The notes under the pieces were generated by a model. The model was not told the origin of the DNA and searched no databases. It saw nothing but the letters and a program-made list of their open reading frames with translations. 64,000 bases of DNA, from NCBI GenBank assembly GCA_015233195.1, contig JADFYE010000006.1:6699-70698 (forward strand). Reading direction: 5' to 3'. Below, in pieces: positions 1,814 through 17,387 of this stretch. The position numbers were made by a program, and so were the translations under genes. Each line of letters begins with the position of its first letter. Position 1 is the stretch's first letter. The stretch is from Candidatus Omnitrophota bacterium (GTDB lineage Bacteria > Omnitrophota > Gorgyraeia > Zapsychrales > Zapsychraceae).

Positions 1814-3133
1814 ATGGGCGTAACCTATAAATTAAAAGAAGAAGTAATTAATTTTGTTTTAGAAATTAAACGTGACTTTCCTGATACTAGCTGCAGGCAG
1901 ATTGCTTCATTGGCTTCTGAAAAATTTAAAATAGAAATTTCCAAGTCTTCGGTAAACAGCATCCTTCAACGCTCAGCCTTAAGCAGTTCAGTTGGTCGGC
2001 GTAATTTATACGCTAAATTCCCAAAAAAATTTGAAATCCCTGCAGAAAAAAAGACTCAAATTACAGAAGTTTTTAAGAACATGCAGTTGGATGATAAAGG
2101 GGAGTTAAAAGCTGGAAAAACCGCGCATATAGAAACAGTAGTTAGCCTTGAAGTTGATGAGGTTGCTAAAAAAGAACTGGAAAATAAAAATTTAACGTTA
2201 TTAGGTGTGGGAATGAATAAGTCTGTGCCGGTATTTCAAGATTCCGGTGTAGAAAAAGTTTTATCTAAAAATTTTGCTTACGCTGGAATAGTATTTTTAA
2301 AAGCAGCAGCTCGGGATGTTTTGGCGCGGGAATTGTGGAGTGATGAAGAACAGGAAAACCGGATACTTCAGTATTTATGTTTAGATCGATATGGCATAAC
2401 TGAACATGATTCAGAAAAAGCTTTAAAAAATTTAGAGGCTCTTTTTTCAATGCAGACCAGAAGGGCGTTTTCGTTTGGTAATTTAAATGCTAAAGAAAGT
2501 ATAGACGTGGGAGTCACGGTCATAAAAGCGATCAAGATTGTTTTGGATGATGGGCGATATTTTTATTTTAGTCCGGATGATTTGGCAGTATGTGAAGATA
2601 TAGATGAGGCAGTTGCTGCGCCGTACCAGCGATGTTTAGATGTGTGCGCTGATGGATTTTTAATAAATAGGATACCATTGGTTTTGAATATTTCCAGTCA
2701 TTGCAGTCTTGAGACTGAGGCTGCAGTGGATAGTTTGATAAATGGGTCATCAACTTTGAAAAAAATTTGTTTTTTAGATCAGTTAAAAAATGTTTTTTTT
2801 GAGATCAAGCATATACCGAATTTGCCTAGAAAATTAGTTAAAGCTCGGGGGAGAATACGGTTGTCGGATAAGGGGGCGAGGGATTGGAAAGGATTTATTT
2901 TTGATGAACAAAAAATTCTGGATGATAATATCGGAGATTTGATATTTGAGCGGATGAAGCAGCGGTTTTTTTATGGAATTGAAGCGAATAAGGGAGAAGA
3001 TTTTTGGAAAAAAATATTTTCGCTGTCCGGCGAGATAGTAAAAAATGAAAATGTGACGCAAATAAAATTGAATTTAGAAGGCGGCACTTTTGATTTCGCA
3101 GTAGTTGACCGAATAAAAGAAATAAATTTTTAA
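1814..3133 (+). CDS. Hypothetical protein with N-terminal helix-turn-helix (possible locus regulator)
   Basis: 439-aa ORF. The N-terminus VINFVLEIKRDFPDTSCRQIASLASEKFKIEISKSSVNSILQRS looks like a homeodomain-like/transposase-type HTH. I do not recognise the remaining ~370 aa. No DDE motif and no terminal inverted repeats. Confidence 0.55.
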   Translation: MGVTYKLKEEVINFVLEIKRDFPDTSCRQIASLASEKFKIEISKSSVNSILQRSALSSSVGRRNLYAKFPKKFEIPAEKKTQITEVFKNMQLDDKGELKAGKTAHIETVVSLEVDEVAKKELENKNLTLLGVGMNKSVPVFQDSGVEKVLSKNFAYAGIVFLKAAARDVLARELWSDEEQENRILQYLCLDRYGITEHDSEKALKNLEALFSMQTRRAFSFGNLNAKESIDVGVTVIKAIKIVLDDGRYFYFSPDDLAVCEDIDEAVAAPYQRCLDVCADGFLINRIPLVLNISSHCSLETEAAVDSLINGSSTLKKICFLDQLKNVFFEIKHIPNLPRKLVKARGRIRLSDKGARDWKGFIFDEQKILDDNIGDLIFERMKQRFFYGIEANKGEDFWKKIFSLSGEIVKNENVTQIKLNLEGGTFDFAVVDRIKEINF

Positions 3134-3164: not shown

Positions 3165-3193
3165 TTGCGGGGTGATTTTGGGCGTGGTATACT
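3165..3193 (+). promoter_or_regulatory. Sigma70-like promoter candidate for the flp operon (-35 TTGCGG, 17-nt spacer, extended -10 TGGTATACT)
   Basis: TTGCGG 3165-3170 and TATACT 3188-3193, preceded by TGG. The same TGnTATACTTT element recurs upstream of the giant ORF (17379-17389). Confidence 0.35.
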
Positions 3194-3345
3194 TTTATCA
3201 GCTCACTTATCATGTTCTCGTCGGAAGACGATGATCCTCAAAACGAGGACCGCGGGTGCGGTGATATAGTTATTTTAAGGCAGGGCTTACCTTAAAATAC
3301 TGATGAGCCTATGAGGTTCGGAAGCCGGCAGCGACGGAATAAAAA
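3194..3345 (+). promoter_or_regulatory. GC-enriched, hairpin-rich 5' leader of the flp pilin array (candidate cis-regulatory RNA, class unknown)
   Basis: Five consecutive stem-loops. ATCAT..CGTC-GGAA-GACG-ATGAT (3209-3235, GNRA-type loop). CCTC-AAAAC-GAGG (3236-3248). CCGC-GGGT-GCGG (3250-3261). ATTTTAAGG-N9-CCTTAAAAT (3272-3298, 9 bp). GAGCC-TATGA-GGTTC (3305-3319). Confidence 0.35.
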
Positions 3346-3486
3346 ATGAAAAGTAAAGGACAAAGCTTATTAGAATATTCTGTTATTGCCGCGGTTGCAG
3401 CTATGGTCTTGGTGACCATGAGCACCTATGTCTTTCGCGCTGTTCAAGGCGCTCGTCAGCATATTTATAATGAAGCCAAAAAATGA
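3346..3486 (+). CDS. flp: Flp-type prepilin (46 aa; not in the ORF track)
   Basis: ATG 3346, TGA 3484-3486. MKSKG/QSLLEYSVIAAVAAMVLVTM has a basic leader, G, then xxxxEY and a hydrophobic helix, which is the Flp/Fap motif. The size is typical of Flp pilins. Confidence 0.8.
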   Translation: MKSKGQSLLEYSVIAAVAAMVLVTMSTYVFRAVQGARQHIYNEAKK

Positions 3487-3503
3487 TTTACATGGGAGGG
3501 ATT

Positions 3504-3743
3504 ATGGGAAAAGGAGTATTTTGTAAGGCAAGGGAAAACAAAGGTCAAAGCACGATCGAATATATTATTTTGGTCACTGCTATTATCGCGGTAATGATTC
3601 TGTTTTTAGCTAAGGGCGGACCGTTTCAGAAAGCAGTAAATCAAACGTTGGAATCGTCGAAAAACAGCATGTTGGAAATGTCGAATCGGTTAAAAAACTC
3701 CAGACCGGCGGTAGGTACTTCAGTAGTTGACCCCAAAAAATAA
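3504..3743 (+). CDS. flp: Flp-like prepilin
   Basis: MGKGVFCKARENKG/QSTIEYIILVTAIIAVMILF. Strong SD GGGAGGG (3494-3500) precedes ATG 3504. The track start 3483 (ATGA overlap with the previous stop) is an alternative. Confidence 0.8.
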   Translation: MGKGVFCKARENKGQSTIEYIILVTAIIAVMILFLAKGGPFQKAVNQTLESSKNSMLEMSNRLKNSRPAVGTSVVDPKK

Positions 3744-3769
3744 GTGAAAATTTTTTCAGAGGAGAATAT

Positions 3770-4144
3770 ATGTTAAAACTAATGTGGCAAAATCGAAAAG
3801 GACAAAATACCGCGGAATACGCGATATTAATTTCTTTAGTTGTGGCAGGGGTAATAGCAATGCAGCAGTTTGCGCAGCGCGCTTTGCAGGCTAGGATCAG
3901 AGATGCTAGTGTTACTATGACACAGCAGACCAATGCGCTCGGATCTACAGTTCAATATGAGCCGTATTATAAAGAAAGTAAAACTTCCCGGACTGCAGTT
4001 GATAATGGGTATACGGATATTAATGCAGAAAAAGATAGACGCGGAACCAGAACAACCGATGATTCTTCCGGGTATGAAACTACTAAATATGGTAAGGGGA
4101 CGAAAGACAACGCCATTAACTTAGAGGACTTTAATTCGAAGTAA
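3770..4144 (+). CDS. flp: Flp-like prepilin with extended C-terminal domain
   Basis: SD GAGGAG then ATG. MLKLMWQNRKG/QNTAEYAILISLVVAGVIAM. Shares QRALQARIRDA and QYEPYY motifs with the 4586 paralog. Confidence 0.8.
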   Translation: MLKLMWQNRKGQNTAEYAILISLVVAGVIAMQQFAQRALQARIRDASVTMTQQTNALGSTVQYEPYYKESKTSRTAVDNGYTDINAEKDRRGTRTTDDSSGYETTKYGKGTKDNAINLEDFNSK

Positions 4145-4176
4145 TATAATTTGTTATTTAGATAAGAGGAGGAAAT

Positions 4177-4503
4177 ATGTTTAAAAAATTGAATGAACGC
4201 CGGAATAGAGGACAGAGTACGCTGGAATACGCGATACTTATAATTATTATTGCGGCGGCTTTGTTGTCGATACAAGCGTATATTAAACGCGGGTTACAAG
4301 GCAGGTTAAAATCCGCAACTGATGACATCGGCGGGCAATATTCAGTAGGAAATACCCGGGTTAATAAGATATCGACAAAAGTAACTAAAACAGAAGAAAC
4401 GTTTAATTTAGGAGTATCCAAGACTAATATCAATTCGGAAAATTCAAAAGTTAATGAAGAAACTGAAATTATTTCAGCAAATAAAGAGTATTGGGGAAAA
4501 TAG
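4177..4503 (+). CDS. flp: Flp-like prepilin with extended C-terminal domain
   Basis: SD AGAGGAGG. MFKKLNERRNRG/QSTLEYAILIIIIAAALLSI. KRGLQGRLKSATDDIGGQY motif shared with 5315 and 12357. Confidence 0.8.
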   Translation: MFKKLNERRNRGQSTLEYAILIIIIAAALLSIQAYIKRGLQGRLKSATDDIGGQYSVGNTRVNKISTKVTKTEETFNLGVSKTNINSENSKVNEETEIISANKEYWGK

Positions 4504-4585
4504 AGGGAGTGGATGGTATAGAGTATAGAGAAAAAAAGAGGTAACCCTGCTTCGCGTAAAGCTACGCAGAGCCAAGGATAAGTTA

Positions 4586-4999
4586 ATGTTTAGAATCATA
4601 TCACAGCATAGGAATAAAAGGGGCGATCAAGGGATCGCCCTTTTTTCTAAACGCGGACAAATTTTAGCGTCCGAATATGTGGTGATTTTTTCAGTAGTTA
4701 CAGGCATGATAATTATGATGACGGTTTTTGTGAAACGAGCTTTTCAGGCGCGAATTTACGACGCGCGGAATACTATGGTTGAACAGGCTCGGGCTAATGC
4801 CGGGGATAGTTATATCGGTACGATTAATGCTGAATATGAACCGTATTATATGCAGTCTAAACGATTTTCGGATTCTACAACGAACTCGCAAGAACAGATA
4901 TTACCAGGCGGAACAGACGGCACATATATTAAAAGTACTTTTGATTATTCAAATGAAAAGAAAAATGTGATTTATTTGCCGCCTAAGGATGCAAAATGA
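4586..4999 (+). CDS. Flp-like prepilin paralog (long leader, one-residue insertion in motif)
   Basis: ...FSKRG/QILASEYVVIFSVVTGMIIMM. KRAFQARIYDA and EYEPYY shared with 3770. The start codon is uncertain because of the 27-aa leader. Confidence 0.65.
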   Translation: MFRIISQHRNKRGDQGIALFSKRGQILASEYVVIFSVVTGMIIMMTVFVKRAFQARIYDARNTMVEQARANAGDSYIGTINAEYEPYYMQSKRFSDSTTNSQEQILPGGTDGTYIKSTFDYSNEKKNVIYLPPKDAK

Positions 5000-5313
5000 T
5001 ACGACAAAGAAAAAAAGCGCAGACGTTCGTCGAATACTCTTTAATTTTAGGGGTTATAGTTGTAACGATTTTAGCATTGCGTCCGATGATAATGCGGGGC
5101 GGGCAGAGCATGGTAAAAACTATGACTGACCAAATAGCTAATCAGCAGTCAGCTGAACAGGATTTTTCTCAGGGCTATCTGAAAGAACAAAAAGAAAAGG
5201 TTGCTACTGACGCAAGAAGATATAAGGGAGAAAATCGTGGAAATTATTTTTTTGGTTATAATGAAACCACCAGAACGACGATGAACATGACATATAATAT
5301 GGGGTATAGATAA
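4996..5313 (+). CDS. Flp-like prepilin paralog (Ala at the cleavage position)
   Basis: ATGA overlap with the previous gene. MIRQRKKA/QTFVEYSLILGVIVVTILAL. Confidence 0.7.
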   Translation: MIRQRKKAQTFVEYSLILGVIVVTILALRPMIMRGGQSMVKTMTDQIANQQSAEQDFSQGYLKEQKEKVATDARRYKGENRGNYFFGYNETTRTTMNMTYNMGYR

Positions 5314-5314
5314 A

Positions 5315-5626
5315 ATGTTAAAAAGAAGAAAAGTTTGCGGGCAATCAATATTGGAATATATGGTTTATTTTACTGTAATAGTCGCGGTATTTGTAACTAT
5401 ATCAACTTATTTTAAAAGAGGGTTAGCCGGCAAATGGAAAGCTTCAGTCGATGATCTGGGCGATCAGTATGATCCGCGCACAGCTGAGTCACATATTTAT
5501 TATAAAACTAACGGAACAACAGTTACTACGTTGAAAAGTACTGAGACTCCCAAAGGTCAATATACAAATCGGTTTGATACTAGTGATTTAACTGAGACCA
5601 AGACGGGGAATATAGTAGTAAAATAG
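5315..5626 (+). CDS. flp: Flp-like prepilin with extended C-terminal domain
   Basis: MLKRRKVCG/QSILEYMVYFTVIVAVFVTI. KRGLAGKWKASVDDLGDQY paralog motif. Confidence 0.8.
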   Translation: MLKRRKVCGQSILEYMVYFTVIVAVFVTISTYFKRGLAGKWKASVDDLGDQYDPRTAESHIYYKTNGTTVTTLKSTETPKGQYTNRFDTSDLTETKTGNIVVK

Positions 5627-5636
5627 TAGGATTAAA

Positions 5637-6902
5637 ATGTTAAAAGAAAAAAACAAAAAAGGGCAGGTTGTTCTCGAGCTAGCGGCTTTTGTGGCTGTAG
5701 TAGTGTTCATTATGGGAATGATCATTAAGCAGTCTATGGACGCTAAATATACGGCTAATGGAGAGTTCCGCGCGTTTAGGCTTGCGCTTAAGTCATCTTT
5801 TATGGCTTCAAAGGGATATATGGGCGGCGGAGGTGAAGATGGCAATAAATCCCGTAATACTGCGGCAATTATAGTTATTGAGGATAGGCTAGACGCTGGA
5901 TCAGGAAGATATGAAACTAAAGACCGTGTTCCGCGGGTAGCCCAAGGCAGTGCAATAGCTAGCGTGAATTTATTTTATACAGTTGATGCCGGAGAAACCT
6001 TTAATGAACCGGTTATGGATTTGTATATTAATAGTCAACATTTTGTATTATCTACCGCGAAATTGGAACGCAAAACTCCGACGGGAACCATATATGAGAG
6101 AATTGCTAATGGAGATAAAGATTATTGGCGAGAGGGCGATGTAAGCCGTTTTGATATTTATAGAGATGGAACTAAACGGGTAACTGATCCTAACTTAATG
6201 AAATATTTTGAGTGGCAGTGGATGGTGGTGCCTTCTAGTAAAATAGATGTGGATAAAGGTAATCATTTACAGGTGGATATAGACGGTGATTTAAAAGATG
6301 AAACTATAATTAAAAAGTGGTTGGTTATGGATAATCAAGACGGAGATATAGATTTAACTTATGATGAGCATGACGCTGATTTATATGATGCTTGTAAAGG
6401 TACTGAGACAATTGATGGAAGAGAATATGAGTATGTTGATCTTAATAAACCAAAATGCAGTAAAGTTAAATGGCGTTCTGGATTGACCAGCAATGCTACT
6501 TTTCTTTCACAACCCAGTCATGGAAAAATCCCTCCGCAGATGTTGGAGACTCAGGAGAAGACTGGAGCAGATGGTAAAAAGTACGCGATTTCTAAAAAGT
6601 TTAATAATAAAACAGATATAATTGAAAGAGAAATTCGGCTGGCTAATTATAGTGGCGCCTTGCGAACTTATGGATATACTACTGGAACAGTTAATCCTGT
6701 GGCAGTAACTTGTTCTAATCCTGTTCCGACCTGTTGTTTTGGAGACAACTATGATAAGACTTGTATTTTTAAGGGTGGCAAAAGCGGAAATAAAAAATAT
6801 TTACCAGTTGTTTATGTAAGATCCAGCGTCGGTGATACTAGAACCAAAGGCTGGGTTACGGATGTTTCGGATCAGAACGCGGGTGAGGTTTTTGGAAAAT
6901 GA
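5637..6902 (+). CDS. TadE-like pseudopilin (421 aa)
   Basis: MLKEKNKKG/QVVLELAAFVAVVVFIMGMII resembles the TadE N-terminal motif (G-x-x-x-x-E-h-A-h-hydrophobic helix). I do not recognise the large C-terminal domain. Confidence 0.7.
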   Translation: MLKEKNKKGQVVLELAAFVAVVVFIMGMIIKQSMDAKYTANGEFRAFRLALKSSFMASKGYMGGGGEDGNKSRNTAAIIVIEDRLDAGSGRYETKDRVPRVAQGSAIASVNLFYTVDAGETFNEPVMDLYINSQHFVLSTAKLERKTPTGTIYERIANGDKDYWREGDVSRFDIYRDGTKRVTDPNLMKYFEWQWMVVPSSKIDVDKGNHLQVDIDGDLKDETIIKKWLVMDNQDGDIDLTYDEHDADLYDACKGTETIDGREYEYVDLNKPKCSKVKWRSGLTSNATFLSQPSHGKIPPQMLETQEKTGADGKKYAISKKFNNKTDIIEREIRLANYSGALRTYGYTTGTVNPVAVTCSNPVPTCCFGDNYDKTCIFKGGKSGNKKYLPVVYVRSSVGDTRTKGWVTDVSDQNAGEVFGK

Positions 6903-7144
6903 AAAATAACGGTCAAATAACTTTAGAATTTGTTTTTTGTATGATCATAGTTTTTTTAATTATATTTTCTCTGACTAAAGTAATGTCTTGGTCTGGGGAT
7001 GGATATGTCGGCATATTTAAGGGACATAATAGTTCTATGACTAGCTGGCAGAGACCAGATCAGCTTGATCCTGGATATTGGAAAGGTAAAGATAAGTATT
7101 TGAACAGTGTTTATACCGGGAAGAATCCGGCGCAAAAAGATTGA
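6899..7144 (+). CDS. TadE-like minor pseudopilin (81 aa)
   Basis: ATGA overlap with the upstream gene. MKNNG/QITLEFVFCMIIVFLIIFSL. Confidence 0.6.
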   Translation: MKNNGQITLEFVFCMIIVFLIIFSLTKVMSWSGDGYVGIFKGHNSSMTSWQRPDQLDPGYWKGKDKYLNSVYTGKNPAQKD

Positions 7145-7147
7145 TAT

Positions 7148-10100
7148 ATGAATATTGAAAATAAAAATTCCGGAAAAAAAGGACAGGTAGCGATAATTTT
7201 ATTGTTAGTCGCTGCTATGGGTTTGATTTTTTATGCCGCGGTTTTAAATATCCAAAAGTCGGGCGAAACCAAAACCAAAGTTATACTTGCTGCTGATTCA
7301 GCTGCGAGCGTTATGGCGTCTGAGCTTGCCAGTTACGGACAAAAATTATTTAAAGAACAAATGGGCGGAGAAGAAGAGATTTGCGAGGGTTCGGGCTTTG
7401 GGTTTTTGCAGATTATAATTTCGATCATATTAGTTGTAGTAACAGTGCTTTCAGTTGTTTTTGCGCCAGGTATTAGTGCGGCATTGTTTTATACGACTGC
7501 GATCTGGCTGGCACTTTCCGCTAACACCATAGTTCAAGTGTTGGTAATTCAGCCGCAGATTACGTCTATGTGGAACAAGATGATGGAAGTTTCAGCGTCG
7601 CAAGCTGATACTTTTTCTGAAGGGGGAATGCAGGCAGCTTTGCAGGGCGCAGTTGCTGACAGCAAGGAGGTCGCGGATTTATTTGATATAAATACCAATG
7701 GAAAATATGGATATAAAGAGGATGGGACGCCGGAAGATAAAATCAGCCGGTATTCATATTATTATACTGAACGGATCCGCTTAAATGATGAGGGTAGATA
7801 TAATCCTGGAGGAGGCACTGGCACAGAGACGCCAACGTTTAAAATGGACGTTCCGTATGTGGTTAAAAAATTTCAGGATGAATTAGCTGATTTTCTTTAT
7901 GATAATCCGGATGGGTTAGACGAGAATGGCAGTTATGACCCGCGGTGCGATGTTCAAAAAAATCCAACCCAATTGTGTTTTGACCATACAGTTAATCAAT
8001 CTCCAGGGTTTTGTAGACAGGATATTTTCAGAGCTTGTAATGCTGGTGAAACTGGAGTGAGTAATCCGGTATATGACACAGTTAATCCTGGGGCTACTTG
8101 TCACCCTCGGGTTAGAGATTTTTGGGCACTGTTTACACCAGTTCCAGTAAGACAGTGTGAGTATGAATATACTGAGACTTTTCCTGAGGATCCTACTGTG
8201 CCGTTGTCGTATGTAGACGCGCAAGTTATGTATCCATATCCAGCGATAGATGCAAATCATCAGTGTCATTATGAAGAGGGGAAGGTTGTTCCTTCTGAAT
8301 GCAATCCTTGTTGTGTTCCCCCGTCAGTTCTTCTGTCAAATGTTACGACCATTAAAACTTTACCGGATTGTTGTGATTGTTCAGCCCGTCCGCCTAGGCA
8401 GGAATATTTACCGAGTAATTTAGGAGAGCCGGGAAATCTTTGTACTCAAGTAGACGAGGCGAGTCCAATAGTTTGTCCGAAAGATCCCATGTCGTGCGAT
8501 GGATCAGCCCAGTCAATAGGACCAGCAACATTACAATGCGGCGTTACTAGCACTTGTGATGTGGCTGCTCCGTATTCGACATTTAATCAATACACTAAAG
8601 CTAATTATCCTTGGGTTTATGATCCGTCATTGGATGATTGGACCACGTATTCAGACGGGATAAATTGGACGGCGTTTAATTGGACTAATTATGATTGGGT
8701 CAACAATCCGGATCAGCGACCGTTTGTATTCTCTAAATTATTAGGACGGGATGATGAGAATAAAAATTATTTTCGTAATCCGCGCCACGTAGATGATTAT
8801 TCCCATCATCCTCAGCAAGAAACCAGTTCTTGTTCTAATACGGATTTTAAGATCGAAGATGCGACTGGATATCAGACGGATAAGACTGATGCTTTTGGCG
8901 CTCCGCTATTTATTGCCAAAGACGAGAAACCAGGATTTATATTTCCGCTTTTATATAAAATGTCAAAGTGGGGGTTAGCTTTATCAACAGTATATCCTTC
9001 AACTAAAGATACAGCGGGCGCAACTATACCTTTGCCAAAAGACAGCAGCGGGGCTGTTTCTAATCCTCTTTACAATCTTTATAATGAATATTGGCAGAGT
9101 ACAGATAAGACTAATGTAGATAGCGTAATGGATGTTACTAATGCTAAATTTCATCAAAAATTTTATAAACCTGCAGGATGTGATTATCCGAATGTAGACG
9201 CTAATACTTGTCAGAGTAATGTTGTTGCAGGAATAAATGATGCTAATGATGTTTGTGGACGAAAAAATAACCGAGTTTGCGATATTGATTTATGCGCAAA
9301 TGCTTCGCCCTCCCCGCTGGTTCCAATGACCTGGGATGATTCAGAAGATTGTTATGGACGAGGCACAGGCTTTAGCAATGATCCTACATCAGGAAATCCG
9401 TATGTTGATGAAGCAACTGGAAAGGGTTTAGCTTGGGATAAATTGTTCCCGCCGGAAATGGAAGGCCGTTGGGTATTACCAATTCAAAAAGTAGAGGGAA
9501 AAGATATAAATTATAGGGTTAGATATGAAGGCGGACAAAAAATAAAAAATTATGTAAGATTGCAATTTGCGCCGCGATCGCAGGTTGACGGTATGGATAT
9601 GAATACCAGAGATAAAAGTGCTGCCAAAAATTTAGCGCCAGTAGGTATTGATATAGTACAACCAGTTGCTAATTTAATAGCAGGCGAAGATATCAGCAGT
9701 TTAAAGGCGAACTCTAATGAAGCGCAGTGCGCGCAGCAATCGGTTTTTGATTTTAATACTGGGATGTGGAGGAAAGGGGATGATTTATATTGTTCTTCAA
9801 CCTATCCTTATGATAAGCATTGCGATAAAAATAAACCACAGCCTTGGGCTTTAGAGCAATTAGGAATAGCGCTACCTGACTCTTGTCAATATTCTCGTGC
9901 TGCGGGTATTCCTGACGGAACAGTTGAGCCGAATCCTGTTGTTGATCCGTATGAACCGGATATTTCTCTAACTACTCCAATGACAAAAGGTGCCCCGACG
10001 GTAAAAGATTGCGCTTGTTCAGATAAAGGAGTGGATAAAGAAGATTTTCCAGATGATCCTTTAGATACAGTTATCTCGGATATGCATGATTTTATTGTTT

Positions 10101-12349
10101 GGGCGCAAAGTATTGTAAACTCTAATCCTTATACTTTGGCTGAGTCTTTTGCGAATTGGTATAGAGGCGCGGCATATTTCCTCGAAGCTGCTCCAATGGC
10201 AAGCTGTAGAATGATGGCTGGCTCAACGCTGGTTCCCCCTCGCAGGGATTGCGCGATGTGTGATAGTTTAACTGATTATCAACTTTATTCGGGTCAAGCT
10301 CTTTTAGCTGGACAATCATTCTGTTTTTACAAAAACAATCCTCCTCCGGGCGGACGGCTTTATTATTGGATCAGCACTTTAAAAATGTTGAGAGATCGGT
10401 TAAATAGTTTTTTGATTAGTAGTTATGAGACGATGAAACCGCATGGTAATAATCTTGAAAATTGTTACACGGCTTTTTGTGTGCCGAATGCCCAGTGCAG
10501 GAGCAATTCGAAATTTTATACTAACAGTGTAGAAAAAACTATTTTAGACAATTCTAGCGGATTGAATCAGGTTCAAGAGTGTTTAAATTGGAATGCTAAT
10601 GATGTTATACCTGGAGCTGACTTAACCAATCCCAGCGCTTATAAGGATGCGTTTCCGATATCAGACGCTCGTAAAAATTCTTCGTGGCCTTTAGATGAAA
10701 ATGGTCAATTTGAAGTTAAAGGTAACGCGGTTAAATTTTATGCTTGCGGACAGACTTGCTCGGATACTTATTGCGGGACAGATAAATTGCCGCGGTCAAT
10801 AGTTCCGGGTTGGAATCCGGCGAAATTTTCAACCGGTACAATAGGGAGTACACCTATTCTTAATAAAATGCTCGCATGTTGGGATGAATGTACTGAAACT
10901 GCGTGTGATGAAGCAGCTGATTCTTTAGTTAGTAACTGGGGAGCTGTGTCGAAGGTATTAAATGCTGATCCGGTTAATTTATCGGCGTTGAGTGCGTTGG
11001 GAGGACAAGCCGGCGTTGAAAACATTAAAGCTGCAGTATTAGCTTCGCCGTATTATGATTCGAATTGGCAGGTGGTTGCTCCTAAAAAAACCATTACTGT
11101 TATCGACGATGTTACTGGCGGTCCTAGTATTTCTATTACGGATTTTCCGCTTATAATTTGGCGTGGAGAGACTACTGAGTGCGCTAATACTGTAGCTGAA
11201 GATGGGACAACTGTAGAAAAATTATTAGGCGCTGGTATAGATAAGGGAAGTCCTTGGTATAACGCGGTTGCTCAAAGCGCGCAAGATGCCGGACCAGCTG
11301 CAACAGGATCGACTCCAGCTCCGTGTGATCCGAGATATGATCCAGATGATCCGACTAAAAGCGGGTGGCTGGGATTTGTCAGACAAAGCGCGGTAGAAGC
11401 TGAAAATCAAGTTGTTAAAATGCGGCGCAGGGCAGAATTTTTATCTGCACGTGAAAATGAAGTTAGATATGTCTTGGATAAAATTATAGGTCAAGAATTT
11501 AGTACTACGCCGACAACAACGCAAGCACACGGCATGTTGTGGCATTTAGAGAAATTTTTAAGCTGTACTCCGGATGATGTAACCGGAGAATTTGTAGGAC
11601 CAGTATGTAATTTGATTAAAGCGCGCAGATTGTATCCGTATGTTGGAAATCAGCCTCCTCAGCCTCCAGCAGATGGTGGTGGTGGTGGAGATGAAGGTGG
11701 AGACGATAGCAGCAATGATGAAGAAGATCAGCCGTCTAATCCGAAATATACTATTGATGCTATCTATGGATGGAGGACAGAAGGAAAAATTGTAAATAAT
11801 GAGGAAGTAAAAGACGGGTCTTGGCATATTGCTCAGGTAAAAGTATGGATGCCGAAAAAAGGATACAGTAAAAAATGGCCTTATATAAAAACCTGGACGG
11901 AGAATATGGGCACTACCCGTTGTTATGCCATGAAGAGCACCAACGGTATTGTGTATGCACAAGTAAGGCGCTGGGATCAAACTAAGCCTTCAGGAGTTAA
12001 CTTTGCTAATGGAATAAAAATGTGGGATTTTAAATCCGGGGCAAATCCATACGGTGTTAATTCGGACAGTTCTAATATAGAAACAACATGTAATACCGAC
12101 GGGGATACCAATCCTTTGTTTGTAAAATATAAAGGTAAAGTTGCTGATTATACTGAGGAGAGGCTGCATAAAGTATTTGATGGAGCGTTTATGTTAGGGC
12201 TTAATGGCGACGCTGGATGTAAGGCTTTATCTGAAAAGCTTTTATCAGAGCAAGGGTTTAAGGAAGACGCTTGTGCTGCGTATAAATTGCACGACGAAGG
12301 ATATCGAATATATTTAAAAAGTAAATGCCCGTTTGTTAAAAAGAATTAA
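7148..12349 (+). CDS. TadG-like giant pseudopilin / pilus-associated Cys-rich surface protein (1,733 aa)
   Basis: N-terminus KKG/QVAIILLLVAAMGLIFYAAVLNIQKSGETKTKVILAADSAASVMASELA fits the TadE/G-like 'Tad' N-terminal domain (hydrophobic helix followed by AaDaAaLAaa). A second hydrophobic segment lies at about 7390-7560. The rest is very Cys-rich (e.g. CNPCCVPPS, PDCCDCSARPP). An acidic/Gly low-complexity patch PPADGGGGGDEGGDDSSNDEEDQ lies at about 11660-11735. Confidence 0.75.
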   Translation: MNIENKNSGKKGQVAIILLLVAAMGLIFYAAVLNIQKSGETKTKVILAADSAASVMASELASYGQKLFKEQMGGEEEICEGSGFGFLQIIISIILVVVTVLSVVFAPGISAALFYTTAIWLALSANTIVQVLVIQPQITSMWNKMMEVSASQADTFSEGGMQAALQGAVADSKEVADLFDINTNGKYGYKEDGTPEDKISRYSYYYTERIRLNDEGRYNPGGGTGTETPTFKMDVPYVVKKFQDELADFLYDNPDGLDENGSYDPRCDVQKNPTQLCFDHTVNQSPGFCRQDIFRACNAGETGVSNPVYDTVNPGATCHPRVRDFWALFTPVPVRQCEYEYTETFPEDPTVPLSYVDAQVMYPYPAIDANHQCHYEEGKVVPSECNPCCVPPSVLLSNVTTIKTLPDCCDCSARPPRQEYLPSNLGEPGNLCTQVDEASPIVCPKDPMSCDGSAQSIGPATLQCGVTSTCDVAAPYSTFNQYTKANYPWVYDPSLDDWTTYSDGINWTAFNWTNYDWVNNPDQRPFVFSKLLGRDDENKNYFRNPRHVDDYSHHPQQETSSCSNTDFKIEDATGYQTDKTDAFGAPLFIAKDEKPGFIFPLLYKMSKWGLALSTVYPSTKDTAGATIPLPKDSSGAVSNPLYNLYNEYWQSTDKTNVDSVMDVTNAKFHQKFYKPAGCDYPNVDANTCQSNVVAGINDANDVCGRKNNRVCDIDLCANASPSPLVPMTWDDSEDCYGRGTGFSNDPTSGNPYVDEATGKGLAWDKLFPPEMEGRWVLPIQKVEGKDINYRVRYEGGQKIKNYVRLQFAPRSQVDGMDMNTRDKSAAKNLAPVGIDIVQPVANLIAGEDISSLKANSNEAQCAQQSVFDFNTGMWRKGDDLYCSSTYPYDKHCDKNKPQPWALEQLGIALPDSCQYSRAAGIPDGTVEPNPVVDPYEPDISLTTPMTKGAPTVKDCACSDKGVDKEDFPDDPLDTVISDMHDFIVWAQSIVNSNPYTLAESFANWYRGAAYFLEAAPMASCRMMAGSTLVPPRRDCAMCDSLTDYQLYSGQALLAGQSFCFYKNNPPPGGRLYYWISTLKMLRDRLNSFLISSYETMKPHGNNLENCYTAFCVPNAQCRSNSKFYTNSVEKTILDNSSGLNQVQECLNWNANDVIPGADLTNPSAYKDAFPISDARKNSSWPLDENGQFEVKGNAVKFYACGQTCSDTYCGTDKLPRSIVPGWNPAKFSTGTIGSTPILNKMLACWDECTETACDEAADSLVSNWGAVSKVLNADPVNLSALSALGGQAGVENIKAAVLASPYYDSNWQVVAPKKTITVIDDVTGGPSISITDFPLIIWRGETTECANTVAEDGTTVEKLLGAGIDKGSPWYNAVAQSAQDAGPAATGSTPAPCDPRYDPDDPTKSGWLGFVRQSAVEAENQVVKMRRRAEFLSARENEVRYVLDKIIGQEFSTTPTTTQAHGMLWHLEKFLSCTPDDVTGEFVGPVCNLIKARRLYPYVGNQPPQPPADGGGGGDEGGDDSSNDEEDQPSNPKYTIDAIYGWRTEGKIVNNEEVKDGSWHIAQVKVWMPKKGYSKKWPYIKTWTENMGTTRCYAMKSTNGIVYAQVRRWDQTKPSGVNFANGIKMWDFKSGANPYGVNSDSSNIETTCNTDGDTNPLFVKYKGKVADYTEERLHKVFDGAFMLGLNGDAGCKALSEKLLSEQGFKEDACAAYKLHDEGYRIYLKSKCPFVKKN

Positions 12350-12356
12350 GCAGAAG

Positions 12357-12596
12357 ATGAAAAAAAATCGCGCCCAATCTATTTCTGAGATTATGTTATT
12401 GCTAGCACTTTTAGCGGGTGTTATGATGCTGATGCAAAAATATGTTTTACGTTCTTTTATGGGACGGATGAAGACTGCAGCAGATCAGGTGGGGTATGGC
12501 AGGCAGTATGATAAAGAAAAAACCACAACTTGTGTTTTGGACGTCAAAACCAATTCTTGGAAAAAAGTAGATGGAACCGGCAGCTGTAATCCGTAA
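12357..12596 (+). CDS. Flp-like prepilin paralog
   Basis: MKKNRA/QSISEIMLLLALLAGVMMLM followed by RSFMGRMKTAADQVGYGRQY (the paralog motif of 4177 and 5315). The track start TTG 12333 overlaps the upstream gene; ATG 12357 is preferred. Confidence 0.6.
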   Translation: MKKNRAQSISEIMLLLALLAGVMMLMQKYVLRSFMGRMKTAADQVGYGRQYDKEKTTTCVLDVKTNSWKKVDGTGSCNP

Positions 12597-12619: not shown

Positions 12620-13471
12620 ATGGTTTTTGTTTTTTTAATAGTGTTTGTAGCAGTCGGGTTTTCGGCTTTGACCGTTATTCCGATCGTCGAGAAATGGTTC
12701 GCGGTAGCCAGCGCGACCCAAGAACAGCAGTTTATGGAACGGATGGAACCTTTGATGGCTAAACAAAAAGCCAAGAAGATGTCTTATCTGTTCATTCTTT
12801 GTCCGTTGCTGCTGGGCGCTGGCGGATATTTTGCTTTACCTAATGTGCCGATGTTTTCGCTCCCGGTCGGAATAGGCTTAGGAATAATTTGTCCATATTT
12901 TATTGTTAAAACTATTATAAAACGTAATCAGGAAAAATTTCAGGATCAGCTGGTGGATGCCTTGCTGATTATGTCCTCGTCTTTTCGTGGAGGCTTAAGT
13001 TTGGTGCAGGCATTGGAAGCAGTAGTTGAAGAGATGCCGGATCCGATCCAGTCGGAATTCGGATTGGTTTTAGCTGAAAACAAAATGGGCGTGTCTTTGG
13101 AAGACGCGATGCAGCATTTGTTCCGCCGCATGCCGTCTATACCTTTACAACAAATGATTACTGCGATTTTGTTGGCGCGGGAAACCGGCGGTAATTTACC
13201 GGTAATTTTTAACCGCATCGTAAATAATATCCGGGAGAGGAAAAAAGTTAAACAGAATTTGGATACGTTGACTATACAAGGGAAAATTCAGGGCGCGGTT
13301 ATGACTTTTTTGCCGATTGGATTTGCTTTTGTGGTTTACTCGAGTAATCGACGGGTTTTTGATCACATGTTGCAGTCGCCGTTAGGGCAGAAATTATTGA
13401 TCGCGGCTTTTATTTTGTGGGTGGTAGGCGCGTTTATGATTTTGAAAATTAGTAAATTTGACGACTTTTAA
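12620..13471 (+). CDS. tadB: TadB-like pilus platform protein (T2SS-F domain)
   Basis: SD AAAGGA. N-terminal TM. QDQLVDALLIMSSSFRGGLSLVQALEAVVEEMPDPIQSEF...ARETGGNLPVIFNRIVNNIRERKKVKQNLDTLTIQGK matches the TadB/T2SSF consensus. C-terminal TM pair. Confidence 0.85.
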   Translation: MVFVFLIVFVAVGFSALTVIPIVEKWFAVASATQEQQFMERMEPLMAKQKAKKMSYLFILCPLLLGAGGYFALPNVPMFSLPVGIGLGIICPYFIVKTIIKRNQEKFQDQLVDALLIMSSSFRGGLSLVQALEAVVEEMPDPIQSEFGLVLAENKMGVSLEDAMQHLFRRMPSIPLQQMITAILLARETGGNLPVIFNRIVNNIRERKKVKQNLDTLTIQGKIQGAVMTFLPIGFAFVVYSSNRRVFDHMLQSPLGQKLLIAAFILWVVGAFMILKISKFDDF

Positions 13472-13568
13472 ATGAGCGCATAATTTACGGAACAAAGTGA
13501 ACGTAAGTTATTTGCGCGAATTTATCCTGAGCGAAGCCGAAGGATTACAATTTATAAAAAAGGTTTTT

Positions 13569-14444
13569 ATGTTAATCATAGTTTTAGTCATGATCTATAT
13601 CGCTGTTTTGACTTTTATCCTCGGGTGTTTTCCGCCGGAATGGGAAGAACGTCCGACGTTAAATGCTTTTGGCGAAGAGATTTATACCAGGAAACAGCGT
13701 AAAAGTTTTACGATTTTGACTTTGTTTGGGGTGATAAATAAACCGGTTTTGGAAATATTCGGCGACATAAAAAAACAATTAAATCGGGATCTGGCAGTAG
13801 CTCGCTTAGACCTGTCTCCTGAAGAATTCATGGTCGTACAAGAAGTAACCATTGGTGTATTATTAGTGGTGCTGCAGCCGATAGTTAAATCAGACATGGT
13901 CATATTTTATATTTGCGTTTCGCTCGCTGGAGGATATATGCTGCCCAGGATTTGGTTGAATGGAAAAATCCGAGCGGTTAAGAATGTGATTGTTAAAGAG
14001 CTGCCTGACGCCATTGACTTACTGGCGCTTTGCGTTAATGCCGGGTTAGATTTTATGCTGGCATTACGCTGGGTGGTCGAGAAATCCCCGCCGTCTTTAA
14101 TGATGACTGAGTTAAATAATCTTTTGCAGGAAATTAATATAGGTAAAACCCGCAGAGACGCGATTCGGGATTTGGCGTTTCGTTATCAGCTTCCTGATCT
14201 TTCGACTTTTTCACGTACGCTGATCCAAGCGGATAAAATGGGTACTTCGGTTACTGAGGCGTTGAATATTCTTTCTGAAGATATGCGTTTATCTCGTTTT
14301 CGACGCGGTGAACAAATGGCGTTAAAAGCTCCGATGAAAATGTTGATTCCGCTTTTATTATTTATCTTTCCAGTGGTAGGTATTTTAGTTGCTGGTCCCA
14401 TCCTTTTGGATTTTATAGAGAACAATCCGTTCAAAGCAATGTAA
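13569..14444 (+). CDS. tadC: TadC-like pilus platform protein (T2SS-F domain)
   Basis: ELPDAIDLLALCVNAGLDFMLALRWVVEKSP...IQADKMGTSVTEALNILSEDMRLSRFRRGEQMALKAPMKM matches the T2SSF consensus. ATG 13569 (AAAGG 6 nt upstream) gives an N-terminal TM like TadB. The track start GTG 13497 would read through a small hairpin (ATCCT..GCGAAGC..AGGAT, 13524-13545). Confidence 0.85.
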   Translation: MLIIVLVMIYIAVLTFILGCFPPEWEERPTLNAFGEEIYTRKQRKSFTILTLFGVINKPVLEIFGDIKKQLNRDLAVARLDLSPEEFMVVQEVTIGVLLVVLQPIVKSDMVIFYICVSLAGGYMLPRIWLNGKIRAVKNVIVKELPDAIDLLALCVNAGLDFMLALRWVVEKSPPSLMMTELNNLLQEINIGKTRRDAIRDLAFRYQLPDLSTFSRTLIQADKMGTSVTEALNILSEDMRLSRFRRGEQMALKAPMKMLIPLLLFIFPVVGILVAGPILLDFIENNPFKAM

Positions 14445-14478: not shown

Positions 14479-16632
14479 TTATTTCAAGTCTTGCCAGGTG
14501 ATGAGTTTGATTTTGTTCTGGTCTATAATTCGCTTGAGTTCGTCTGACATTAGGAATTGATAATCTGCTTCGCGTTCTTTCGCTGTTTCTTCTGAGGTTT
14601 GTTTGACAGAAGCTTCTTCGTAAATACTAGGATGGAGCAATAAAAGCGAAACGCCAACAGAGCAAGACACCATTTTTCTTTCTATTATTCTATCCAGCAC
14701 CATGGTATCCGCAGGGATTTTTTTCTCAATAGAGCGCGGCAAATAATTTCTACCGATTCTAACCGGAAGTTTATATTCGCGACCAATTTCTTCATATAGG
14801 TAAAGCAGTTTTAATGACTGGTATTCACAGCCCATATGTATGTCCAGATGAGACAATTTGATATTATCTGCTAAGGCTTGGTCGATTTGGGCTTTAAATT
14901 CTTTTTTAATCTCTTTAAAACCAAATTTATTTAAAGCTTCGGAGCAAGAATCTGGCATGTAACCACTTCCGTAACCCCCGGGGTTACGGAAGGTTGACCA
15001 TTCATTGGTTATGGTTAGGTGTACGCCCCAATCAAGTTCCGGGTGTTGTTTGGCGAATTCCGCGATTTCTTTATAAGCAGGCGCTTTAACCATGATACTT
15101 CCTGATTTAATTGCACCCTTTTCAACAGCATTGAAAAATGCTTGATTTGTAGCATGGTTTAAACCCAGGTCATCAGCAATAATAATTAAGTATCTATTTG
15201 GCGGTAAATTCAGCAGTTCGGTTAAGTTTTCATAGCCCAAACCGCGGTATTTTAAAGCCATACTTAAGGAATAAAAAAATTCTGGTTCTTGGTTGGGATC
15301 CAGTGTTTTGATATTGGGATTAGCTTTGATGTTTTCACAATCGTTTTTCAAGAAATTTATCTTACCTTTAAAGAATTGAAGATATCGGTAAGGGTAAATA
15401 AATTTTAAGTAGATTGGACAAATAATGATAAAAGCAATAGCTGAAATTACTGTTAAACGTTTAGTTTGGACATTATTTAGTTTGGACAAATGCTCTAAAC
15501 AGGCATTTTTTATCATAATTATAAATAATACTACTATTAAAAAATATTGGGCGCCTACCATTCTATATGGCATTTCTAATAAGAGTTGAGAGCGGAAGGT
15601 GGTCATTAATCCAGATTGGACATTTTTTAGAGATAAGATTAGCCCAAGGCAAAATGAAAGAGTTAAAAATAAAGAGATTATCTCTACGAATCTGGCTTCC
15701 CGCAATCTGGAGATGTTATTTGGCAGCTTTATTCGCTTGAAAAGCCAGTAGAAAATTCCAACATAAAAAAGCGATTTTATCGCGATCATCCAGTATGGCG
15801 TTAGTTCTGTAGGTAAAGCTACTGCTGAATTTAATTGCGGTAATATTTTGGCTTGAAATAATAAAGAGGGGATCGATAAACAGCAAATCAGTAAAGGAAA
15901 CGTCCAGGACAGCGTCGGAATTTTGTCTCCGGCTTTATCAGAAATTTTTTTGTGGATTAATATAGTTAAAGACAAAATCGGCAGAAGAATTAAAGCCATG
16001 CCTTTATGGTAGAACCAGAGCAACAAACATCCAGCAAAAAATAGAAGTGGTTTACTGCCAGCAAAGGCGATAAATATCGACGAGAAAATAAAAATAGCTG
16101 CACCGCGGGATGGGTACGCGATTGTTCCGTATACTCGCTGTTCAAGCTCAGGAGAGCCAAAATGCCATAGCCGAAACACTGCGAAAATTATTACGATCAG
16201 CATGGTCCAGGGAGAGAAAAAACTTTTGTTTCCGACGTAAAGAATGAACGCTAGGGCAAATATAAAAAGCAATAAAAAACTGTATTTCACGGCGAGAGCA
16301 TAAGGGAAATCGGTTTCAGGAAATTTGACACCCATTTTTTCGATTACTTTTGTCATTAAATTCGACGCTGGATAATTGGTAGCACTGGTTAAGCGGTTTA
16401 CTGTGCGTTGTTTTTGTTCAGGAGAAATATCCGCGTTTTTGACCAGGTCAGTTTCGATCGCGATGATTCTTTGTTTGGTGATTTTAGGCGCGAACATGAC
16501 TGCGGAAGAATACGCGTGCACAGCTTTGTCGTCGCAATCATCCGTCGGATAATAGAGTGAATAAATAATTACCGGCTGGATAAAGAGCCAGATAAATAAA
16601 ATGAATTTTAAAAATGGGTTAAATTTTTTCAT
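14479..16632 (-). CDS. Fusion protein: polytopic membrane domain + C-terminal YdjC/ChbG-type carbohydrate deacetylase
   Basis: 717 aa. The N-terminal ~440 aa hold many hydrophobic helices. The C-terminus LIIIADDLGLNHATNQAFFNAVEKGAIKSGSIMVKAPAYKEIAEFAKQHPELDWGVHLTITNEW matches the YdjC signature (DDfG.s..vn.gi.....G.v.s.s.Mv..p.........vGvHl.lt.g). Confidence 0.8.
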   Translation of the reverse strand: MKKFNPFLKFILFIWLFIQPVIIYSLYYPTDDCDDKAVHAYSSAVMFAPKITKQRIIAIETDLVKNADISPEQKQRTVNRLTSATNYPASNLMTKVIEKMGVKFPETDFPYALAVKYSFLLLFIFALAFILYVGNKSFFSPWTMLIVIIFAVFRLWHFGSPELEQRVYGTIAYPSRGAAIFIFSSIFIAFAGSKPLLFFAGCLLLWFYHKGMALILLPILSLTILIHKKISDKAGDKIPTLSWTFPLLICCLSIPSLLFQAKILPQLNSAVALPTELTPYWMIAIKSLFYVGIFYWLFKRIKLPNNISRLREARFVEIISLFLTLSFCLGLILSLKNVQSGLMTTFRSQLLLEMPYRMVGAQYFLIVVLFIIMIKNACLEHLSKLNNVQTKRLTVISAIAFIIICPIYLKFIYPYRYLQFFKGKINFLKNDCENIKANPNIKTLDPNQEPEFFYSLSMALKYRGLGYENLTELLNLPPNRYLIIIADDLGLNHATNQAFFNAVEKGAIKSGSIMVKAPAYKEIAEFAKQHPELDWGVHLTITNEWSTFRNPGGYGSGYMPDSCSEALNKFGFKEIKKEFKAQIDQALADNIKLSHLDIHMGCEYQSLKLLYLYEEIGREYKLPVRIGRNYLPRSIEKKIPADTMVLDRIIERKMVSCSVGVSLLLLHPSIYEEASVKQTSEETAKEREADYQFLMSDELKRIIDQNKIKLITWQDLK

Positions 16633-17359: not shown

Positions 17360-17387
17360 TTGCCAGACGCAATATATATGTTATACT
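17360..17387 (+). promoter_or_regulatory. Sigma70-like promoter candidate for the giant ORF (-35 TTGCCA, 16-nt spacer, extended -10 TGTTATACT)
   Basis: TTGCCA 17360-17365 and TATACT 17382-17387, preceded by TGT. It lies about 100 nt upstream of ATG 17485 and shares TGnTATACTTT with the flp promoter candidate. Confidence 0.3.

Follow-up and report, generated by a model that had tools for sequence, protein, structure and literature searches.

How the Omnitrophota, which are abundant, uncultured and ultra-small and are suspected to be predators or parasites, attack other cells is a question for which their Tad locus and their giant genes provide the chief genomic clues. Seymour et al. (2023; PMC10066038) described Tad complexes (TadBC, RcpA) across the phylum, and as expressed in the predator V. 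archaeovorus. Here, we consider a stretch of 64,000 nucleotides (nt) of an Omnitrophota contig (the window), in which a cassette of eleven genes with prepilin-like N-termini (P1-P11, positions 3346-12596, plus strand) lies between genes for a CpaF/TadA-type ATPase and for the platform proteins TadB and TadC. What would such a machine build from eleven pilin-like proteins? The genes probably encode the pilins of a Tad-type (type IVc) pilus that is built from several kinds of subunit. The window was compared with Omnitrophota Tad loci of ~20 kilobases (kb) each, designated L001, L002, L081, L083, L084, L085, L086 and L087. The nearest ATPases among 185,579 species genomes belong to Candidatus Omnitrophota metagenome-assembled genomes (68% and 58% identity), and P3, P4, P6, P8 and P10 are identical to NCBI entries HQL25_03555, _03560, _03570, _03580 and _03590 ("Candidatus Omnitrophica bacterium"), respectively.

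Eleven pilin-like genes between Tad assembly genes

All eleven open reading frames (ORFs) that an initial annotation of this DNA had listed as prepilin-like genes are present on the plus strand at the positions that it gave, with the N-terminal strings that it had quoted. Each product starts with a short basic leader, which is followed by Gly or Ala, Gln, and then at least 16 hydrophobic residues. A Glu is found at position +5 in all but P5, where it is at +6, and P10, which has none, so that 10 of the 11 bear this residue. Gly or Ala followed by Q-x-x-x-E-Y and at least 16 hydrophobic residues is seen in P1-P4, P6 and P7, and P11 has E-I. A six-frame scan of the 64 kb for [KR][GA]Q-x3-4-E-[YFLI] returned eight sites that are all starts of cassette genes and have tails that are 88-100% hydrophobic, together with a ninth, spurious match on the minus strand (tail 31% hydrophobic). 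A looser scan found 10 prepilin-type N-termini in the first 20 kb of the window. Apart from the spurious match, the stricter pattern is restricted to the starts of the cassette genes, and it is not an effect of chance or composition. The genes are tightly packed, with four overlaps of 4-17 nt (P1/P2, P5/P6, P8/P9 and P10/P11) and six gaps of 1-82 nt.

The division into eight Flp-like proteins (E-Y) and three TadE/F/G-like proteins (E-L, E-F or no Glu), as originally proposed, fits both the motifs and the gene order. Two of the Flp-like proteins are short, namely P1 (3346-3486, 46 amino acids (aa), MKSKG/QSLLEY), a Flp-type protein of which the mature ~41 aa are entirely of helix-type sequence, and P2 (3483-3743, listed with 86 aa, KG/QSTIEY), for which the true start is probably at 3504 (79 aa), where a GGGAGGG Shine-Dalgarno sequence lies 3 nt before the ATG. 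Extended Flp-like proteins follow with P3 (3770-4144, 124 aa, KG/QNTAEY, QYEPYY type), P4 (4177-4503, 108 aa, RG/QSTLEY, KRGLQGRLKSATDDIG type), P5 (4586-4999, 137 aa, RG/QILASEY, EYEPYY type with a one-residue insertion), P6 (4996-5313, 105 aa, KA/QTFVEY, overlapping P5 by 4 nt) and P7 (5315-5626, 103 aa, CG/QSILEY, KRGLAGKWKASVDDLGDQY type). The eighth, P11 (12333-12596, 87 aa with 2 Cys, RA/QSISEI), overlaps P10 by 17 nt. The two paralogue groups that had been noticed are indeed there, one with the KRGLQGRLKSATDDIGGQY type of motif in P4, P7 and P11 and the other with Q/EYEPYY in P3 and P5; the KRGLQGRLKSATDDIG motif of P4, P7 and P11 continues with ..QY. C-terminal extensions had been put at 40-90 aa, and they exist but are slightly smaller, reaching 20-68 aa beyond a 45-aa mature core, with none in P1; six Flp-like genes have extensions of 28-68 aa past this core. 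The extensions are polar and rich in S/T/N/K/E, and the small products measure 41-113 aa after predicted cleavage. The remaining three genes are P8 (5637-6902, 421 aa, G/QVVLEL), which resembles a large minor pilin and has a TadE-like N-terminus and a beta-rich domain, P9 (6899-7144, 81 aa, NG/QITLEF), a small TadE/TadF-like minor pilin that overlaps P8 by 4 nt, and P10 (7148-12349, 1733 aa, KG/QVAIILLL), a TadG-like giant minor pilin or anchor.

The flanking genes bear out that the cassette belongs to one Tad-like operon. Upstream, the first 1356 nt of the plus strand (1-1356, open from nt 1) encode the C-terminal 451 aa of a CpaF/TadA-type ATPase (T2SSE 1.4e-61; TIGR03819 2.8e-100), for which the TadA family TIGR03819 is the best NCBIfam model with 335.8 bits against a cut-off of 373, the protein being cut by the window edge. 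Downstream, also on the plus strand, lie a TadB-like platform protein (12620-13471, a single T2SSF domain at 1.5e-19, 50-58% identity to the L081 and L083 orthologues) and a TadC-like platform protein (13497-14444, a single T2SSF domain at 4.2e-14, 49-64% identity to its orthologues). The ATPase is 66% identical to residues 269-715 of a 719-aa fusion of TadZ (ParA-like) and CpaF (T2SSE) in L001 and, as judged from this alignment, is most likely the CpaF half of such a fusion cut by the start of the window. In the relatives TadZ::CpaF is a single polypeptide of 717-725 aa (L001 9095-11254; L002 2368-4545; L081 4459-6612; L085 949-3114; L086 582-2747; L087 78-2249). The 10 kb upstream of the ATPase in L001 contain, in order, a Rotamase peptidyl-prolyl isomerase (PPIase), an RcpC/CpaB-like protein, a secretin and the 719-aa fusion, and RcpC (PF16976), the secretin (PF00263) and the ParA+T2SSE fusion lie directly upstream in L001, L002, L081, L083, L085 and L086. 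Because the relatives share this upstream block and the ORF in the window continues the fusion, TadZ, RcpC and the secretin would most likely be found just before nt 1. The initial annotation had noted that the window contains no TadV, secretin or TadZ, which holds, there being no prepilin peptidase, no secretin and no separate TadZ gene in it. A secretin, RcpC and TadZ are not absent from the system as a whole, as every relative has them immediately before the ATPase. The secretin of the relatives carries a C-terminal TonB_C domain (PF03544), which is unusual for the RcpA/CpaC type (L081 2811-4433; L083 2399-4072; L085 1-878; L086 1-516), and a Rotamase-type PPIase always precedes rcpC.

Conservation and transcription of the cassette

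The same eleven orthogroups occur in the same order in at least five other Omnitrophota genomes. In L081, L083 and L084 the best BLAST match of each of P1-P11 is located at the same ordinal position of an eleven-gene run, and L085, L086 and L087 carry the same eleven, although P1 is present but uncalled in L086 and L087. The sizes recur as well, such that the relatives encode seven small proteins of 52-124 aa, a large one of 478-529 aa, a small one of ~110 aa, a very large one of ~1120-1150 aa and a small one of 105-117 aa, followed by TadB and TadC. P4 is the best-conserved member, with 53% full-length identity to the orthologues in L081 and L083. Identities for the others are 45-49% for P1 in L081 and L083 (with a weak Flp_Fap match in the L083 and L085 copies), 45-54% for P2, 67% over 70 aa (L081) and 47% over 116 aa (L083) for P3, 29-35% for the positional orthologues of P6, 35-41% for P7 and 35-41% for P11, which is found at the same position and reads G/FSMVEY in L081; positional orthologues of P9 are also present. 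In the P5 orthogroup (L081, L083, L085, L086 and L087) the extra residue before the Glu is always kept and the Glu itself is changed to Gln in L081 and L086, so that the otherwise invariant Glu is dispensable in this protein. The more distant L002, with an ATPase that is 58% identical, carries nine or more such genes in a rearranged order, among them genes that are clearly orthologous to P3 (40% over 126 aa) and to P4 (38% over 104 aa).

Since the paralogues are shared in order across lineages, they predate the divergence of these lineages and each has been retained, and the retention of all eleven argues for eleven non-redundant roles rather than for a recent expansion. The description of the locus as an "expanded, diversified set" is thus appropriate in that the set is large and paralogous, but not in the sense of a recent or lineage-specific diversification, as the cassette is old, fixed and collinear. 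That the set is unusually large is seen by comparison with 52 Tad loci of more than 15 kb from many other phyla, which were collected with the same ATPase query and analysed with the same N-terminus detector: the cassette has 9-10 Glu-bearing N-termini plus the TadG-like gene, as compared to 0-6 in the other loci (no hit in 15 loci, one in 8, two in 7, three in 12, four in 6, five in 3 and six in 1). The G/Q cleavage site itself is not special, and starts of the form GQ..EY or GQ..EF were also found in Bdellovibrionota-like, "Deltaproteobacteria" and Elusimicrobia loci.

Upstream of P1 a promoter-like site (3165-3193, plus strand) is composed of TTGCGG, a 17-nt spacer and TATACT with an upstream TG. 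The latter part, TGGTATACTTT, is of the extended -10 type and precedes P1 by ~160 nt. The relatives have CTTGACA-N17-TGTTATACT upstream of the P1 orthologue (L081, L083, L085, L086 and L087) and, in L085 and L086, also upstream of the giant genes discussed below (L081 8927; L083 8688; L085 5637, 16400; L086 5344, 17674; L087 4651). The same motif occurs before a ~600-aa gene of the relatives that has no assigned function. Within the cassette, sites that resemble promoters or terminators occur no more often than in shuffled sequence. From the tight junctions, the lack of internal terminators and promoters above chance and the conserved extended -10 element, we infer that the genes from P1 to tadC are transcribed as a single unit from a strong promoter of their own. 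In L083 (8673-9060), L085 (5596-6006), L086 (5321-5590) and L087 (4608-5160) the P1 leader consists of the promoter, a GC-rich hairpin and a terminator-like U-tract, an arrangement that points to an attenuator or a small RNA. A shorter leader without the terminator-like hairpin is found in the window and in L081; the 212-nt leader of the window folds modestly better than shuffled sequences (z = -2.25). No Rfam family was matched across the window, nor by a sensitive scan of the P1 leader, and no tRNA genes were found in the 64 kb.

The arrangement of the genes bears on how the Flp-like paralogues would be used. With eight Flp-like genes that have divergent exposed C-terminal parts, the paralogues might be alternative major subunits, of which one is used at a time, giving a switchable or antigenically variable fibre, and pilin variation has precedents in other type IV systems. 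However, the paralogues form one-to-one orthogroups in a fixed order across genomes, and thus do not represent a variable repertoire. Furthermore, the overlapping or tight junctions suggest co-translation, the cassette contains no internal promoters or terminators above chance, and neither inverted repeats flanking a promoter nor repeats resembling silent cassettes were found, the longest direct repeat being 48 nt with 71% identity. A switchable fibre is therefore very improbable. The initial annotation had suggested a "heteropolymeric or switchable fibre"; the first of these is plausible, and the second does not accord with the tight junctions and the lack of switching elements or repeats.

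Predicted folds, family models and the tip-like trio

In the small products the helix is directly followed by a conserved segment, M-Q-x-Y-x-K-R-G-x-Q-G-R. An alignment of 68 sequences of the P4 family shows QSTLEYA, Y35, K37, R38, G42, D49 and G52 to be invariant, and the AlphaFold2 model of P4 based on this alignment (mean predicted local distance difference test (pLDDT) 76.8) comprises a helix (15-54) and a beta-hairpin (60-77/80-98). Classical Flp, by contrast, consists of a helix only. A profile of 14 pilins retrieves 1830 database proteins at E<=1e-3, with the organism given as Omnitrophica/Omnitrophota; none of the best 120 of these 1830 matches carries a Pfam domain, and where they are named, the names are "Flp pilus assembly pilin Flp", "UPF0333", "RodZ" or hypothetical. 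Foldseek searches with the P4 and P8 models against the PDB gave no match at E<0.1, and matches of the P4 hairpin to MS2 coat protein and to the stems of pore-forming toxins were dismissed as generic. No meaningful match emerged when P8, P10 and the pilin profile were searched by sequence against the PDB.

P8, P9 and P10 differ from the Flp-like proteins, and from their N-terminal motifs, size classes and gene order we infer that they correspond to TadE, TadF and TadG. P8 has 16 homologues, all unnamed and without Pfam domains. Its beta-rich domain bears the motifs DxDGDLK, GDIDL and FD-x-x-RDG, which the homologues conserve as DxDGDLK(E/D)E, GD(I/L)D(L/F) and FDLDRDG. By sequence these acidic motifs resemble calcium-binding loops, and one P8 homologue weakly matches EF-hand models. 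The AlphaFold2 model of P8 (16 sequences, pLDDT 71, predicted template modelling score 0.65) has a predicted helix at 5-59 and an all-beta domain of ~360 aa, and thus the pilin-type "lollipop" shape. About half of the P8 homologues (P0122-P0136) contain a Cys/Pro-rich insertion of ~100-150 aa that is missing from the P8 of the window. P10 contains 55 Cys, as compared to 42-44 in its orthologues, and transmembrane-like segments at 14-32, 86-104 and 116-134; the richness in Cys and the two additional hydrophobic segments are conserved in the orthologues. There are 37 P10 homologues, and when the query and its closest relative are excluded, 33 of 35 share only the N-terminal 12-18% of the query, such that P10 is conserved only in its N-terminal ~15%, with the remainder variable. 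The N-terminal 223 aa are 30% identical to the product of an 800-aa gene beside the ATPase in L002. A self-comparison of P10 revealed no internal repeats.

Several observations weigh against the assignment as Tad pilins. Curated pilin models of Pfam and NCBIfam reach their cut-offs on none of the eleven products. The presence of Flp_Fap and TadE matches had been proposed as a check, which was half passed, as weak matches exist but all lie below the gathering scores. Flp_Fap (PF04964) scores best on P1, with 18.1 bits against a cut-off of 32.2 (E = 0.0024), TadE (PF07811) on P9, with 15.1 bits against 22.9 (0.026), and Class_IIIsignal (PF04021) on P2, with 21.1 bits against 23.7 (2.8e-4). P4 gives only a weak match to Class_IIIsignal (15.9 bits), and within its 68-member family 24 of 68 match Class_IIIsignal (best E 1.6e-4) and 10 of 68 match Flp_Fap (E<=0.01), all below threshold. 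P3, P5-P8, P10 and P11 have no pilin-family matches in Pfam, and NCBIfam yielded nothing useful on the eleven proteins. P8 and P10 are without any family or structure match: TadE is matched neither by P8 nor by its 15 homologues, and P10 matches neither TadG (PF13400) nor anything else in Pfam, NCBIfam or the PDB. A subunit that has to leave the membrane would not usually have two additional hydrophobic segments, as P10 does, and P10 may serve as an anchor in the membrane instead of as part of the tip. An A24 prepilin peptidase is encoded neither in the window nor in any of the related ~20-kb loci. The assignment rests on motif, genomic context, orthology and predicted fold, and not on curated hidden Markov models; current Flp and TadE models miss this whole pilin family.

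Among Pfam models, the archaeal Class_IIIsignal comes closest to these proteins, which also raises the question of whether all of the small proteins are filament subunits. Several of them might instead be surface or periplasmic proteins that use the class III signal for membrane anchoring and release, as substrates of the archaeal bindosome do, and the polar, S/T/N/K/E-rich character of the extensions would suit such a use. The ATPase also bears a resemblance to BasE, the ATPase of the bindosome, though one that is much weaker than that to TadA. Against this reading, the products have only 41-113 aa, no ligand-binding domain is detectable in them, the conserved segment directly after the helix is as expected for packing in a filament, and all genes are embedded between those for the ATPase and the platform. 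We therefore consider a role outside a filament highly unlikely.

Assembly, known systems and the giant neighbour

For the heteromeric Tad pilus we propose a model that builds on the genes present and their neighbourhood, on the motifs and the collinear orthology, and on the folds predicted for single subunits, and in which the processing, the stoichiometry, the major subunit and the role in adhesion or predation are deduced. The promoter of the cassette would probably drive tadB and tadC along with P1-P11, and each product would enter the inner membrane via its N-terminal helix. A prepilin peptidase, assumed to be encoded elsewhere, would cut after the Gly or Ala, such that Gln becomes +1 and Glu +5. 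The TadZ::CpaF ATPase and TadB/TadC would then assemble the subunits, with the filament exiting via RcpC and the secretin. P8, P9 and P10, as equivalents of TadE, TadF and TadG, would form a priming tip, from which the variable, Cys-rich C-terminus of P10 could touch the prey or host. P1 and P2 would be classical short Flp subunits, and P3-P7 and P11 are likely to be Flp derivatives in which a C-terminal beta-hairpin (predicted for P4) decorates the helical core. The latter might serve as extra shaft subunits or as adapters between tip and shaft, giving a heteromeric fibre. The strongest Shine-Dalgarno sequences are those of P2 (from 3504), P3 and P4 in three genomes (-9 to -12 kcal/mol, as compared to -1 to -8 for the others), a hint that the cell produces several Flp-like subunits in large amounts, although Shine-Dalgarno strength is a weak proxy for abundance.

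With the canonical Tad/Flp systems (Aggregatibacter tad, Caulobacter cpa and Pseudomonas tad/rcp) the locus shares the CpaF/TadA ATPase, separate TadB and TadC, Flp pilins with G/xxxxEY, putative TadE/TadF/TadG-like pseudopilins and, in the relatives, RcpC and the RcpA secretin. It differs in that TadZ, a separate protein in the canonical systems, is fused to CpaF in the relatives and most likely here, in the gene order (rcpC-rcpA-tadZ::cpaF-DUF192-X-pilins-tadB-tadC, with no tadV and no tadD in the locus), in the TonB_C domain of the secretin, and in having eleven pilin-like genes, Flp extensions of 28-68 aa and Flp and TadE models that remain below cut-off. A second comparison is offered by the Kil Tad pilus of Myxococcus xanthus, a contact-dependent predator. 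This pilus has a major Flp, Flp-type "adapter" minor pilins that connect tip and shaft, and disulfide-rich, TadE/F/G-like tips (KilL/M/N), in which the distal domain of the largest subunit is exposed and variable (Herrou et al., 2025, PMC12075869). The likeness is one of architecture and concerns the trio of P8, P9 and P10, the 55 Cys of P10 and the restriction of its conservation to the N-terminus. However, the Kil tips are encoded by four scattered, paralogous three-gene clusters that are used combinatorially, whereas here there is one tip-like trio and it is the Flp-like genes that are multiplied.

A likeness to archaeal pili is seen in the signal peptide, as EppA-type archaeal pilins, like many Flp pilins, are marked by Gly at -1 together with Gln at +1 and Glu at +5 (PMC3875500). 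The Epd pili of Methanococcus maripaludis, with ~10 pilin-like genes, of which one encodes a major and several encode essential minor pilins (PMC3875500), have the same signal-peptide motif, and PF04021 is the best-scoring Pfam model on P2, on the family of P4 and on the orthologues. In contrast to Epd, the genes studied here lie in one operon of a diderm bacterium with a secretin, RcpC and TadZ, and their products have a Tyr at +6, which is lacking in Epd.

On the plus strand, 3 kb after tadC, a giant ORF begins that is a neighbour and not a member of the pilin set (17485-63999). It is free of stop codons over more than 15,505 aa and runs off the window. Its N-terminus (MKKATEKGQLGLPERD...) is without a class III signal helix, and within its first ~470 aa lie a membrane region and a stretch that resembles a C39 peptidase. 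A Pfam search of the first 10,000 aa at 1e-5 returned no match, and BLAST of P8 and P10 against it revealed no common modules. Downstream of TadC, giant genes recur in L085 and L086 (called at 47,583 aa) and probably in L087; L081, where nuo genes come next, and L083 have none at this place. The 11-mer TGNTATACTTT has two copies in the 64 kb (0.23 expected), one in the cassette promoter (3185-3195) and the other (17379-17389) ~105 nt upstream of the giant ORF, the promoter-like site of which lies at 17360-17387. The common motif could reflect shared regulation or merely the strong-promoter consensus of the phylum. The giant ORF is a possible functional partner of the cassette. A role of its C39 region in processing the pilins was rejected, since the cassette leaders end in K/R/N-G/A; C39 enzymes cleave after leaders of the Gly-Gly type.

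The giant gene is also the reason to consider that the locus is not a pilus but a Tad-derived secretion or display system, in which a short periplasmic pseudopilus, like that of GspG-K, pushes or hands the giant protein or other cargo through the secretin. The initial annotation had likewise named a pseudopilus acting as a "secretion piston". Many different pilin-like subunits are a trait of pseudopili, the cassette and the giant gene hold the only two copies of TGNTATACTTT in the window, and giant genes follow the cassette in several genomes. West-Roberts et al. (2023; bioRxiv 10.1101/2023.11.21.568195) labelled the locus "type II secretion-like", a conserved block that precedes a giant gene in Omnitrophota and holds genes for a PPIase, RcpC, a secretin, an ATPase and GspF-like proteins as well as small class III signal genes. 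The type II secretion system (T2SS) indeed has several pilin-like subunits (GspG-K), an ATPase, a platform and a secretin in common with the present locus, and has a tip complex in which the large subunit GspK binds calcium. However, it uses a GspE-type ATPase and the motif G/FTLxE, whereas here the ATPase is of the TadA type, the platform is split into single-domain proteins, RcpC is present and the motif is G/Qxxx-E-Y. Accordingly, T2SS models score far below their cut-offs (GspE 48-49 bits against >600, GspF 18 bits against 424, and XpsH on P4 16 bits against 160, with E = 0.0065), no T2SS family reaches threshold, and neither GspC/L/M homologues nor an N_methyl match were found in the window. 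In addition, L081 and L083 have the same cassette without an adjoining giant gene, and the giant protein contains a region that spans the membrane and does not begin like a pilin. To our knowledge, no Tad system secretes folded cargo. A secretion or display system is thus unlikely, though it deserves to be kept in mind, and the published label is corrected towards Tad.

A heteromeric pilus and the giant protein might also act as one unit, in which a hairpin-decorated heteromeric filament with a variable, Cys-rich tip docks on prey and deploys or presents the membrane-anchored giant protein. This is a speculative and rather improbable extension of the pilus model. The giant gene adjoins the cassette in 4 of 6 close loci and the promoter motif is common to both, which may be taken as hints, whereas the occurrence of the cassette without an adjacent giant gene speaks against obligate coupling. 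If true, the machine and the giant protein would represent a new Tad-based system for effector delivery or display, analogous to but independent of the T2SS.

The window is a member of the published Omnitrophota Tad/giant-gene locus type, the upstream part being read in the relatives, and a 2026 preprint repeats the observation on the flank of the giant gene. In the accessible parts of these three sources (Seymour et al., 2023; West-Roberts et al., 2023; the 2026 preprint) the small genes are mentioned only in passing, and neither a dissection of the pilin set nor an account of the fixed number of eleven, of the collinear orthogroups, of the Flp family with hairpin extensions, of the TadE/F/G-like trio with its variable, Cys-rich P10 or of the separate promoter was found. 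The fixed eleven-gene cassette, the Pfam-less family of extended Flp proteins and the hypervariable TadG-like subunit are new detail, which turns a vague group of many small class III signal genes into defined and testable parts, namely short Flp, extended Flp derivatives and a TadE/F/G-like trio. These parts can be used for determining abundances and pyroglutamate N-termini in metaproteomes, for modelling of filament and tip, and for relating the variability of P10 to host range.

The remaining genes flank the cassette. Between tadC and the giant gene, the minus strand (14479-16632) encodes a 717-aa fusion protein, of which the long N-terminal part is a polytopic membrane region and the other part a YdjC-like carbohydrate deacetylase domain (3.5e-37); this gene is not at the same position in L081, L083 or L085-L087. 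Upstream of P1 lies the plus-strand gene for a conserved 439-aa protein (1814-3133) with a helix-turn-helix-like N-terminus (weak HTH_32 match, 5e-4) and no transmembrane-like segment. Its orthologues of 584-632 aa are always located between the DUF192 gene and the first pilin gene (L081, L083, L085, L086 and L087), and only the helix-turn-helix-like N-terminal ~90 aa align well with them. The protein was considered as the missing prepilin peptidase and rejected for its lack of a membrane segment. It may regulate the pilin genes. Its orthologue has a promoter-like site of its own in L081, L085 and L086. The DUF192 protein (PF02643, 6.4e-12), a conserved accessory component of this type of locus, is encoded on the plus strand at 1361-1711, with a start at 1454 in the ORF list. 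Homology to the relatives begins at ~1361, where there is no ATG, GTG or TTG, and the gene may use an unusual start codon. It is found at the same position in L001, L083, L085, L086 and L087. Within a few kb of CpaF, a DUF192 gene is present in 37 of 84 fetched Tad loci from many phyla, a frequency that suggests an unrecognised accessory role of this protein in Tad systems.

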